64,000 nt of DNA from NCBI GenBank assembly GCA_964596985.1, contig CAZQWG010000001.1, forward strand, positions 396,977-460,976. The letters run 5' to 3'. The position numbers and the translations under genes were made by a program. The notes below the pieces were generated by a model, which was not told the origin of the DNA, did not search any database, and saw nothing but the letters and a program-made list of their open reading frames with translations. This DNA is from an uncultured Candidatus Bathyarchaeia archaeon. Lineage in GTDB: Archaea > Thermoproteota > Bathyarchaeia > RBG-16-48-13 > GCA-020345945. Below are positions 4,022 to 7,369 of this stretch, piece by piece. Position 1 is the stretch's first letter; every line of letters begins with the position of its first letter.

Positions 4022-4177
4022 TTAACCCGTGCCCGAAGATTTCTTCTTGAACTCCTCTGCACATCTCTCACAACAGAAGGCATGCTTCTCACCATTTCCA
4101 GTTTCTTGGACACTGGCAAACAGGCAACCCTCAGCCGAGATCGTAGACTTACAAAACTCACACTTCAATACCTTCAC
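4022..4177 (-). CDS. small Cys-rich TRASH/zinc-ribbon-like protein (51 aa, below the ORF-track cutoff)
   Basis: Manual translation gives VKVLKCEFCKSTISAEGCLFASVQETGNGEKHAFCCERCAEEFKKKSSGTG. The GTG start overlaps the IscU TGA stop as GTGA. The pattern is CxxC..CCxxC. Confidence 0.5.
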   Translation of the reverse strand: MKVLKCEFCKSTISAEGCLFASVQETGNGEKHAFCCERCAEEFKKKSSGTG

Positions 4178-4539
4178 CTCTTTTTCAAGTAGTCTTGAAT
4201 GGCTGCATGGAGGGCGTCTGCAGCAAGGTTTGAACAGTGCATTTTTATCGGAGGGAGACCATCGAGGGCGTCGGCAACGTCTTTCTTCGTGATCTCAAGC
4301 GCCTCTTCCAACGTCTTCCCTTTGGCAAGCTCGGTGATCATGCTGCTTGTGGCGATGGCAGCACCGCATCCGAAGGTCTTGAATTTTACGTCGACCAACT
4401 TGTCGTCATTCACCTTGATCGTTACGGTCATCATATCCCCACAGACAGGGTTGCCCACGGTCCCCACACCGTCGGCGTCGGGGATCTCTCCCACGTTTCT
4501 CGGATTTCGGAAGTGTTCCATCACTTTCTCGCTATACAT
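4174..4539 (-). CDS. iscU: Fe-S cluster scaffold protein IscU/NifU-like
   Basis: 121 aa. MYSEKVMEHFRNPRNVG, NPVCGD, FGCGAAIA and HCSNLA contain the three conserved Cys ligands. Confidence 0.85.
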   Translation of the reverse strand: MYSEKVMEHFRNPRNVGEIPDADGVGTVGNPVCGDMMTVTIKVNDDKLVDVKFKTFGCGAAIATSSMITELAKGKTLEEALEITKKDVADALDGLPPIKMHCSNLAADALHAAIQDYLKKR

Positions 4540-4540
4540 C

Positions 4541-5713
4541 TCACTCTTCTCCTTTAGGGGTGAGCGGAGACATCTCTCTCAGCCGTCGGATGATGCCCGG
4601 CAGTTCATTCAATACATAGTCGACTTCTTCTTCAGTGTTGTGTTTTCCTAAAGTGAAGAGAAGCGAACCTTGGGCTTCCGCGTGAGGAACCCCCAACGCA
4701 ATGAGAACGTGCGAGGGTTGTAGCGTCTTGGAGGTACACGCCGAGCTGGAGGAGGCTGCGACCCCGACCATCTCAAGGCTTAGCAATAGTGCTTCGCCTT
4801 CTATATAGTCGAACCGGAAATTGGCGTTGTTCGGTAGCCTCTTGGTAGGGTGACCGTTCAGATGCGAGTCGCCTATCTCACTCAATACGCCCGATATCAG
4901 CTTGTCCCGGAGCATCCGCAACCGGTTTCCTTCCTCCTCCATCTCTTCTGCAGCGATCTCTGCAGCCCTCCCCATTCCAACTATGCCCGCGACGTTCTCG
5001 GAGCCGGATCGCAGTCCCCTTTCCTGCCCCCCACCCAGTATGAGGGGGGCGATTCTCACCCCGCGCCTTATATACAGAGCCCCAACGCCCCTCGGCCCAT
5101 ACATGTCGTTCGAGGACACCGTCAGCATGTCTATGTTTTCGTCTTGGACGTTTACCGGGATCTTTCCGCAGGCAGCGGTCGCGTCGACGTGAAGAGTTAC
5201 CCCTTTCTCACGAGTGATCTTTCCGATCTCTCTGATTGGCTGGATTGTGCCGATCTCACCATTCGCGTACATTATCGATACGAGTACCGTATCCTCGGTG
5301 ATCTCCTCCCCCAATCTTTCGGTGTCGACGAAGCCTTCACGGTCCACGGGGAGATGAATGACTTCGTAGCCCAGTTTCTGTAGGTGTTTGCAGAGATTGA
5401 TGATAGACATATGCTCTATGCTGGACGTGATGATTCTTCTTCCTCCATCCCTATTCCTGCTCAGAAAGCCCATCAATGCGAGGTTGTTTGCTTCTGTGGC
5501 TCCCGAGGTGAAGACGAGTTCTTCAGGATCCTCGGCACCGATCAAACCAGCCAGACTTTCTCTCGCAGCTTTCACCGATTCTGCGGCCTCAAGTCCGAGT
5601 CTATGAAGGGACGAAGGGTTTCCGAACTTCGTCGAGTGGTATTCTGTCATTGCCTCCAGTACCCTTGGGTCCACTGGAGACGCTGCCGCGAAATCAAAAT
5701 AGACTCTCCTCAT
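4541..5713 (-). CDS. iscS: IscS/NifS-like class V aminotransferase-fold protein lacking the PLP-binding lysine
   Basis: 390 aa. It has GNPSS.H, FTSGATE.NN, the active-site loop SSSSACTS and a C-terminal RLREMSP. The expected S-G-H-K motif reads S-S-N-D (N202 D203, codons 5105-5110). Confidence 0.85.
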   Translation of the reverse strand: MRRVYFDFAAASPVDPRVLEAMTEYHSTKFGNPSSLHRLGLEAAESVKAARESLAGLIGAEDPEELVFTSGATEANNLALMGFLSRNRDGGRRIITSSIEHMSIINLCKHLQKLGYEVIHLPVDREGFVDTERLGEEITEDTVLVSIMYANGEIGTIQPIREIGKITREKGVTLHVDATAACGKIPVNVQDENIDMLTVSSNDMYGPRGVGALYIRRGVRIAPLILGGGQERGLRSGSENVAGIVGMGRAAEIAAEEMEEEGNRLRMLRDKLISGVLSEIGDSHLNGHPTKRLPNNANFRFDYIEGEALLLSLEMVGVAASSSSACTSKTLQPSHVLIALGVPHAEAQGSLLFTLGKHNTEEEVDYVLNELPGIIRRLREMSPLTPKGEE

Positions 5714-5825
5714 GGCTTTTTCCTTCCGTATCTGTTCTTCCCGATTTGTCCGTTCGACGGTTTCCGGGTAGTACTGGTCATGGCGGACTTTTTTCTATCT
5801 TTTGGATCGGGGATAAGGCTTCAAC

Positions 5826-6230
5826 CTATTCTTGGTGGAGGTGCAGGCTCTCGGTTTCGAGTATTCTGATGCAGACGTCGCACGAGTCTGGGAGTTCCTT
5901 GTCGAGTTCCCTGTGAAGCTTGCAGAAGTCTCCGCTCCTTCTCATGGAGATGCAGATCCGGCATGTCTCCTCTATGGTCAAAGATGGCGGCGAGTCACGG
6001 CTGGCAAGGTCTTTCGCGATCACCCTTATGTCGCGGACGAAATCGTCCGAGAGTTGCGTCCTGCTGCCCCGATTGGAGGCCATGTACCTGCTCATTGCCG
6101 ACTGCGTCATCCCGAGCTTCTTTGCCGCAGAGATTTGGGTGAAGTTGTGTTTCTCGATTAATTCTTTGGCTATCTGCGCCCTCACCGCTGGAAGGATATA
6201 GTTCGTCATGATCTCACATGGGGGTCTCAT
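5826..6230 (-). CDS. HTH transcriptional regulator with Cys-rich C-terminal domain
   Basis: XRE-like HTH FTQISAAKKLGMTQSAMSRY, followed by CRIC..C..CDVC. It lies between the E1-like gene and iscS on the same strand. The true start is possibly M8. Confidence 0.55.
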   Translation of the reverse strand: MRPPCEIMTNYILPAVRAQIAKELIEKHNFTQISAAKKLGMTQSAMSRYMASNRGSRTQLSDDFVRDIRVIAKDLASRDSPPSLTIEETCRICISMRRSGDFCKLHRELDKELPDSCDVCIRILETESLHLHQE

Positions 6231-6303: not shown

Positions 6304-7065
6304 TTATTCTCCTCCACAGACCGGGCAGTCGGGTCTTCTCGAAAGCTCGATTTCGGTGAATTTCATTAGCTCTCCGTCGTAGATCAGGAGTCTGTTTTCC
6401 AGTAGGCTTCCGATGCCTGTCAGGTACTTTATTGTTTCTGTGGCTTCGATCATCGCGATCAAGCCAGGGGAGACCCCTATTACCGGAAAGGTTTCGCTCG
6501 GTGGGGCTTCTGGGATCACGCAGCTCAAGCAAGCCGTCTTGAAGGGGATGATGGTGGTGGCTCTTCCTTCCAGCCCCCATATTCCTCCATGAACGAAAGG
6601 GATGTTGAGTTTGACTGCGGCCTTGTTGAGTAGGTATCTTGTCGGGAAATTGTCCATCGCATCCACGATGACATCAGATCCCTCAATCATCTCAAGGAAG
6701 TTCTCTTCATCGATCTCGACGCAGTCCGCTTCGACTTCGATATCTGGGTTAATTCTTCTGAGCTTCTCCTGAATGGACTCCGCCTTCATCTTTCCTATGT
6801 CGTCGTCCCAGTGTAGTACTTGTCTATTCAGATTGCTCAGCTCGACGGTGTCCTTGTCAACAATCCTTAGCGTTCCCACTCCGGCGACAGACAAGTAGAC
6901 CGCGATAGGACACCCCAGTCCCCCAGCACCCGCCAAGAAGACTTTTGAAGACTTGAGTCTTCGCTGTCCTTCCAACCCTAAGCCAGGGATCATGATCTGC
7001 CTGTCGTACCGCTCCATCTCTCTCTGTGTGAGCTTAACATCTGGATTCTTAGACTCATCTTCCAT
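6304..7065 (-). CDS. E1-like adenylyltransferase (ThiF/MoeB/UbaA family)
   Basis: YDRQI, the nucleotide loop GAGGLG, DxD..SNLNRQ, and two CxxC pairs (CLSC, CPVC). Confidence 0.85.
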   Translation of the reverse strand: MEDESKNPDVKLTQREMERYDRQIMIPGLGLEGQRRLKSSKVFLAGAGGLGCPIAVYLSVAGVGTLRIVDKDTVELSNLNRQVLHWDDDIGKMKAESIQEKLRRINPDIEVEADCVEIDEENFLEMIEGSDVIVDAMDNFPTRYLLNKAAVKLNIPFVHGGIWGLEGRATTIIPFKTACLSCVIPEAPPSETFPVIGVSPGLIAMIEATETIKYLTGIGSLLENRLLIYDGELMKFTEIELSRRPDCPVCGGE

Positions 7066-7369
7066 GGATCTCTCCTCCGCTGACCGCTGGAAGGATCAGT
7101 ATCTCATCGTTCTTCTTGAGCTTGGTCTCAAGCCCCTCAACAAACCTCATGTCCTTGCCGTTGATGTATATGTTGATGAAACTCTTGGGTTTTCCGTCTT
7201 TGTCGCATAATTTTCTTTTAAGCGCGTTTCCGTACCTTTGGATCAGATTGTCGAGGACCTCTCCGAGCGTGTCTCCTGTTGTCCACGTCTCTCTTTGATT
7301 GTTTGCTGCACTGACCAATGCATGTGATAATGTTACCTTGACTTTCACCATCTCTACTCCTTCCTCCAA
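7055..7369 (-). CDS. MoaD/ThiS/SAMP-type ubiquitin-like protein with a 5-residue extension after the diglycine
   Basis: C-terminus is DEILILPAVSGG-EIHGR. The ORF overlaps the E1-like gene start by 11 nt. The true start may be M7 (MVKVKV). Confidence 0.65.
   Translation of the reverse strand: MEEGVEMVKVKVTLSHALVSAANNQRETWTTGDTLGEVLDNLIQRYGNALKRKLCDKDGKPKSFINIYINGKDMRFVEGLETKLKKNDEILILPAVSGGEIHGR

Follow-up and report, generated by a model that had tools for sequence, protein, structure and literature searches.

A Lysine-Less IscS-Like Gene Coupled to iscU in a Bathyarchaeia Genome in Which SufB/D Was Not Found

The window (the whole stretch of 64,000 nt analyzed here) contains an iscS/misS-like gene on the minus strand (4541–5713), which codes for a protein of 390 amino acids of the lysine-less (Asp) type. 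This protein covers the whole Pfam Aminotran_5 model (PF00266, model positions 1–371 of 371, E 3.8e-75), so the type I desulfurase fold is present in full length. Its top PDB match is IscS2 of Archaeoglobus fulgidus (4EB5), which aligns with residues 4–384 (E 6.5e-141), and the second match is 4R5F, the D199K variant of the same A. fulgidus protein. An initial annotation, made from the sequence alone, had described an end-to-end likeness to cysteine desulfurases, which these alignments confirm.

The protein includes the segment DMLTVSSNDMYGPRG, and its residues 199–209 read VSSNDMYGPRG. We have aligned it by MAFFT with the IscS of E. coli K-12, from which the residue correspondences given here are taken. 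Asp203 falls at the position of Lys206 and Asn202 at that of His205, and S-S-N-D is found in place of S-G-H-K206. The two codons, AAC for Asn202 (5110–5108) and GAC for Asp203 (5107–5105), occupy 5105–5110 on the minus strand. The sequence and the E. coli alignment thus agree with the initial annotation, which had reported S-S-N-D at this motif. Other positions are also changed: Ala180 (GCT, 5174–5176, minus strand) is found at Gln183 of E. coli IscS, Leu352 (CTC, 4658–4660, minus strand) at Arg354 and Ser238 at Thr243. On the other hand, His101, Asp177 and Cys326 correspond to His104, Asp180 and Cys328, all three retained. Cys326 (TGT, 4736–4738, minus strand) is the loop cysteine, part of the SSSSACTS string, and had been correctly recognized as kept. 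We take Gln183 and His205 of E. coli IscS to be PLP contacts, and Arg354 to be the substrate-binding arginine. The protein departs from active type I desulfurases at the PLP lysine, at the positions of Arg354, Gln183 and His205, and in its NCBIfam scores: 514.2 with the NifS model TIGR03402 (cut-off 530.75) and 300.8 with the IscS-subfamily model NF002806 (cut-off 304).

When compared with E. coli IscS (1P3W/3LVL) and NifS, the protein has the same fold, length, loop cysteine and partner IscU, and is 46% identical to E. coli IscS, but Lys206, Gln183, His205 and Arg354 are all absent. A. fulgidus IscS2 (4EB5, 4EB7, 4HVK and the D199K variant 4R5F) presents the same SSND, with its Asp199 aligned to Asp203. 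It also has Ala, Asn and Leu at the positions of Gln183, His205 and Arg354, the loop cysteine, and an IscU encoded adjacent. Both alignments, with the E. coli and with the A. fulgidus protein, place Asp and not Lys at the PLP position, and the Asp-for-Lys type proposed at the outset is that of the top PDB match. On sequence grounds, the gene is a new member of the "dead IscS" type of A. fulgidus IscS2, a type already known by structure and biochemistry.

The properties of the A. fulgidus protein are relevant here. It has no desulfurase activity (PMC7585200; PMC8918507), and its proposed function is that of a scaffold partner, with sulfide as the source of sulfur (PMC8918507; PMC7585200), so the literature agrees with the description, given in the initial annotation, of an inactive assembly partner of IscU. 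In the crystal structure with IscU(D35A) a [2Fe-2S] cluster is found, and the loop cysteine of IscS is its fourth ligand (PMC7585200; PMC13066941; PMC8918507). The further statement that this protein binds no PLP holds only in part: the Lys–PLP Schiff base is missing together with the activity (PMC8918507), but the isolated protein holds pyridoxamine phosphate (PDB 4HVK) and the IscS–IscU complex has been modelled with PLP (PMC8918507, a 2022 review). Two differences concern the host, which belongs to a different phylum-level lineage (Bathyarchaeia), and the absence of any SufB/D found in this genome, unlike A. fulgidus, where SmsCB is present (PMC12192291). IscS1 (MisS1) of Methanosarcina acetivorans also lacks the catalytic lysine, as does A. 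fulgidus IscS, and is paired with an IscU (PMC7585200), a likeness which we take from its description in the literature. Unlike the genome studied here, M. acetivorans has three IscSU pairs and two SufBC systems; its IscS1 is uncharacterized and formed inclusion bodies.

An obvious question is whether the SSND motif is real. Three sediment metagenome runs have Logan contigs at this site, which show no differences from the window, and codons 202–203 are unchanged in all of them. One run (X1) may be the source sample, and the same study also provided the other two (X2 and X3), from different samples; the X2 contig spans 5052–5774 and the X3 contig 5012–5248, together 5012–5774 with no differences. 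The motif is also widespread. It is found in 116 of the 120 nearest protein clusters at 90% identity (two others have SSNE) and in 74 of 80 loci taken from genomes that represent their species; Lys is absent from this site in all 80. It occurs in Bathyarchaeia, Hadarchaeota, Methanosarcinales, Methanocellales and A. fulgidus. In an alignment of 21 members the mean column identity is 77%; S200, S201 and N202 never vary, and the conservation of D203 reaches at least 90%. A sequencing or assembly error is ruled out by the identity of the contigs from the three runs and by the conservation of the motif throughout the clade. Nor does the gene look like a recently inactivated pseudogene, as its frame is intact, its conservation high and its motif shared by several archaeal lineages; an artifact or decayed gene of either kind is hardly conceivable. 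The lysine-less IscS is, to judge from this conservation, under strong purifying selection. The conservation of the Asn-Asp pair argues that the pair itself is selected, beyond being merely tolerated.

The loss of the lysine is accompanied by other changes. We have aligned 182 proteins: 150 representatives at 50% identity obtained by an exhaustive search, Asp-type members, and the paralog found in this same genome. The position of Gln183 is Ala in 41 of the 47 proteins without Lys, and Gln in 129 of the 135 which bear it. For His205 the corresponding figures are Asn in 36/47 and His in 121/135, and for Arg354 they are Leu or Val in 40/47 and Arg in 134/135. Other positions are the same in both sets: the loop Cys328 (47/47 without Lys, 133/135 with Lys), His104 (45/47 and 135/135) and Asp180 (47/47 and 134/135). 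These substitutions are correlated across relatives, and the aligned sequences indicate that the lysine-less type is a remodelling of the whole pocket, more than one single change.

A FastTree phylogeny of 163 of these 182 proteins, in which many nodes are weakly supported, places the SSND proteins in one main clade, with a few variants (SSNE, SANS, SSSA, SSGP and ASNP). Its sister is a Lys-bearing archaeal clade, which includes the paralog from this genome. The Lys state changes at least three times in the whole tree, most parsimoniously five. Nine lysine-less IscS/NifS-like representatives are found outside the main SSND clade: P0129 (TAHM), P0138 (SAQG), P0142 (SAHT), P0143 (SAQQ), P0169 (SSHT), P0177 (AGNQ), P0209 (SPHL), P0217 (TAHR) and P0246 (SARS). 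The several changes of state in the tree, together with these outlying proteins, indicate that the lysine has been lost repeatedly in the IscS/NifS family.

A third IscS-like type retains the lysine, and is found in some relatives (L110, L112, L113, L114 and L140, from G028, G029, G015, G010 and G183). At the positions of Gln183, His205, Thr243 and Arg354 it has Asp, Tyr/Asn/Ser, Val and Leu, respectively. It adjoins a more divergent IscU (46–48% identical) in three of the four loci whose flank was inspected.

The gene which follows the lysine-less iscS codes for a scaffold protein, IscU/MisU, of 121 amino acids (4174–4539, minus strand), and begins 1 nt past the iscS-like stop codon. It matches Pfam NifU_N (E 1e-50) and NCBIfam TIGR03419 (213.9 bits, above the cut-off of 187.9), and its set of ligands is complete: Cys33, Asp35, Cys58, His101 and Cys102. 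This arrangement is a general one. IscU adjoins the Asp-type gene in 75 of the 80 related loci, where one seeming exception corresponds to a masked stretch. In close relatives, it is found beside 12 of 13 Asp-type genes, but beside none of the eight canonical Lys-type paralogs. Among the neighbouring genes examined in the window there is no hscBA, fdx, iscA or iscR. The locus is similar to the archaeal MIS system (MisS–MisU), a unit of two genes, IscS-like and IscU-like, without chaperones or carriers (PMC13066941; PMC12442378). Nevertheless, MIS has been described with a cysteine desulfurase, while here it is the inactive type that is coupled to IscU, and the paralog which looks active has no such partner gene.

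A third gene may belong to this unit. A short ORF of 51 amino acids (4022–4177, minus strand), with a CxxC...CCxxC pattern, follows iscU, and its GTG start overlaps the iscU TGA. It appears to be TRASH/YHS-like, on the basis of Pfam matches to TRASH_HVO_1752_C, zf-FCS and YHS which are all below threshold. Homologues are found directly after iscU in 41 of 70 related loci. In close relatives they are present in six of ten Asp-type loci, in contrast with none of five loci with a Lys-bearing IscS and IscU. This ORF, translationally coupled to iscU, is a candidate for a third component with a metal-handling role.

Other genes are found upstream of the lysine-less iscS on the same strand. The nearest one (5826–6230, minus strand) codes for an HTH protein, with weak HTH matches only, which has a C-terminal CxxC...C...CxxC string. 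Further upstream are a ThiF/UbaA-like gene (6304–7065, minus strand) and a ThiS/MoaD-like (SAMP-like) gene (7055–7369, minus strand). The presence of these last two genes suggests that the IscS-like protein might act outside Fe-S assembly, perhaps by loading sulfur onto the SAMP/UbaA pair for the thiolation of tRNA or the synthesis of molybdopterin. Nevertheless, this neighbourhood is found in only one or two of the 80 loci, as opposed to 75 with an adjacent IscU, which makes such a function very improbable. The HTH protein is likewise rare in the vicinity of the Asp-type gene (two of the 80 loci), so neither it nor the UbaA/SAMP genes can be considered conserved partners.

The position of the HTH gene is occupied by tusA and dsrE in related genomes. 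Among 72 related loci with at least 1 kb of upstream sequence, 36 have both TusA and DsrE, 30 TusA only, two DsrE only, and four neither of them. One or both genes are therefore found immediately upstream in 68 of the 72 loci, and both families are confirmed by Pfam. The locus in the window is an exception, as TusA/DsrE are not found upstream on the same strand, and the same is true of a relative from the same genus (CP070773.1). The genes are not missing from this genome: A TusA ortholog, 55–59% identical to the linked TusA proteins, is found on the same contig about 20 kb away (C1:381026–381292), and a DsrE-like gene on another contig (C4:127482–127892). The TusA ortholog is divergently adjacent to a gene for a ThiF-family protein of 358 amino acids with a C-terminal extension. 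In the literature searched we have found no paper on a linkage of either TusA/DsrE or a TRASH protein with IscU in archaea.

We have also searched the genome (2.33 Mb, 98.5% complete) for other components of Fe-S assembly. A canonical Lys-bearing IscS-type paralog, 54% identical to the Asp-type protein, is found on another contig (C2:357890–359038). It retains SSHK and the loop Cys, as well as Gln, Thr and Arg at the other pocket positions, and scores 340.1 with NF002806, above the cut-off of 304. No IscU is found beside it. A second IscU gene stands alone next to ilvC (C5:42488–42850); its first cluster cysteine is changed to Asp (GNPADGD instead of GNPVCGD), and the other ligands are retained. 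A class V enzyme on contig C6, which has a lysine in a GGKW motif, was not accepted as a desulfurase, as no Cys loop is visible in its sequence. Neither SufB/D (PF01458) nor SufE was found in this genome; the SufB/D control was positive in all 14 reference genomes. Since no SufB/D was found and IscU is located beside the Asp-type gene, the paralog coupled to IscU would be the inactive one, while the active-looking enzyme is encoded alone. The presence of a canonical paralog may be a further difference from A. fulgidus: Both of its IscS copies are reportedly without Lys, a finding attributed to Pagnier et al. in 2015.

These results also bear on the source of sulfur. The initial annotation had deduced a source independent of any desulfurase. 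This may be accepted for the IscS-like protein itself, but not for the organism, which has a Lys-bearing paralog. The same applies to most of the relatives sampled. In a sample of 201 genomes of the class, the DNA pattern for SSND-x-YGP is found in 71 (none with the reversed control), and at least 54 of these 71 also have a Lys-bearing IscS- or SufS-type motif. The counts of Lys-bearing desulfurases by patterns are lower bounds; an FSGHKM pattern was added for SufS-like FSGHKMLGPTG proteins, which were found in four initially negative genomes. SufB/D is found in 70 of the 201 genomes, 13 of them with the Asp type; genomes with just one of the two number 58 (Asp type) and 57 (SufB/D). This corresponds to an odds ratio of 0.29, for genomes which are not phylogenetically independent. 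The Asp-type IscS–IscU pair thus often looks like the sole scaffold system, yet most genomes with this pair also encode a separate Lys-bearing desulfurase. SufS-type desulfurases (FSGHKM..GPTG, RSGHHC) are found in some Bathyarchaeia genomes where SufB/D was not found (L117, L118 and L129–L132, from G009, G022, G183, G043, G085 and G191).

Our overall explanation, which we consider probable, is that the gene codes for a catalytically dead paralog of IscS, a partner of IscU whose Cys326 would serve as a ligand or as a point of sulfur transfer, with sulfur of external origin. The Schiff-base lysine has been replaced by Asp in this paralog, and Gln183, His205 and Arg354 by Ala, Asn and Leu. The fold, the mobile-loop cysteine and the ring and phosphate contacts His104, Asp180, Thr76 and Ser203 (here His101, Asp177, Thr73 and Ser200) have been retained. 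The protein would be translated together with IscU and, by analogy with the A. fulgidus crystal structure, we infer that both form an (IscS–IscU)2 complex. Within this complex, Cys326 may be the fourth ligand of the nascent [2Fe-2S] cluster on IscU, the point where sulfur is handed over, or both. It follows from the residues present that the standard mechanism, by which a desulfurase takes a persulfide from cysteine, should not be open to the IscS-like protein, and sulfur would have to be supplied from outside. Several points speak against this explanation, among them the unlinked TusA/DsrE genes and the weak support of many nodes in the tree. IscU might be served by the canonical paralog without any intermediary, in which case the Asp-type protein would have another role. 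In addition, the A. fulgidus structure with a bound cluster was obtained with the D35A variant of IscU, so the native set of ligands may differ from the one seen there (PMC8918507).

The protein might still be an enzyme, able to use PLP or PMP bound in a non-covalent way to remove sulfur from cysteine, or a related substrate, without a lysine. Such an activity would agree with the conservation of His101, Asp177, Thr73 and Ser200, which contact the ring and the phosphate. Nevertheless, the lysine is not the only residue lost, as those at the positions of Gln183, His205 and Arg354, the last one presumably needed for substrate binding, have also been replaced. In the case of the A. fulgidus protein, a B6 vitamer is retained (PMC8918507), but there is no desulfurase activity (PMC7585200; PMC8918507). 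A remaining activity of this kind is most unlikely.

If the IscS-like protein is a dead paralog, different routes may be considered for its sulfur. The one we prefer, tentatively and with a little less than even confidence, is the transfer of a persulfide onto Cys326, either from TusA/DsrE, which are unlinked here, or from the Lys-bearing paralog. Such a relay is favoured because the linkage to the carriers is nearly universal in relatives and the cysteine is invariant. The case for it is weaker in the window than in the related loci, since its own TusA/DsrE genes are found elsewhere.

Free sulfide may instead be the sole source of sulfur, with the Asp-type IscS as a purely structural partner and ligand donor whose Cys326 never carries a persulfide. 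This is what has been proposed for A. fulgidus (PMC8918507), and archaeal minimal systems are able to use sulfide (PMC12192291; PMC13066941). The DNA comes from sediment metagenomes. In 17 of the 71 Asp-type genomes no Lys-bearing desulfurase motif was detected by patterns, whose counts are minimum values. One of them (G078, 96% complete) has no strong class V match besides the Asp type; another (G007, 93% complete) has only other class V matches, and no Cys loop was seen in the one inspected. On the other hand, carriers of sulfane sulfur upstream of 68 of 72 related loci would not be expected if free sulfide were used alone, and a Lys-bearing desulfurase has been kept in this genome and in most relatives. 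The invariance of the loop cysteine, which could be raised against a sulfide-only supply, is compatible with both possibilities. In our opinion, sulfide as the only source is less probable than the relay, but a serious alternative.

The persulfide relay onto Cys326 may be extended to include the third gene. In Bathyarchaeia which lack SufBC, as the present one seems to, the lysine-less IscS, IscU and the TRASH-type Cys4 mini-protein might be the main or only scaffold machinery for Fe-S clusters. The dead IscS would be the receiver of a relay of sulfane sulfur independent of cysteine, from TusA/DsrE to Cys326 and then to IscU. A B6 vitamer without catalytic function would be held by the nearly invariant Asn-Asp pair, and metal would come from the TRASH protein. 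This proposal is speculative, and we regard it as doubtful in its complete form. If it were correct, the unlinked carriers of this genome would mean that such a relay also functions in trans.

The locus is relevant to the origin of the sulfur in the Fe-S clusters of anaerobic archaea. The "dead IscS" of A. fulgidus has so far been treated as an oddity, and the same type is now found in Bathyarchaeia, a major lineage of sediments. Its presence in 71 of 201 genomes of the class, mostly without SufB/D, the linkage to TusA/DsrE and the recurring TRASH-like ORF provide candidates for sulfur and metal donors which may be tested. The window contributes a Bathyarchaeia member, from a genome without detectable SufB/D, which departs from the usual linkage to the carriers and whose iscU is followed by a conserved TRASH-like gene. 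Taken alone, it adds little beyond one further member of the type and one informative exception, in which the carriers are unlinked.

We should also note that two contigs labelled as bacterial MAGs (L021 and L083, assigned to Actinomycetota and Krumholzibacteriaceae) contain an archaeal-type SSND IscS–IscU pair, with 60–63% identity. These cases correspond to either mis-binning or transfer.
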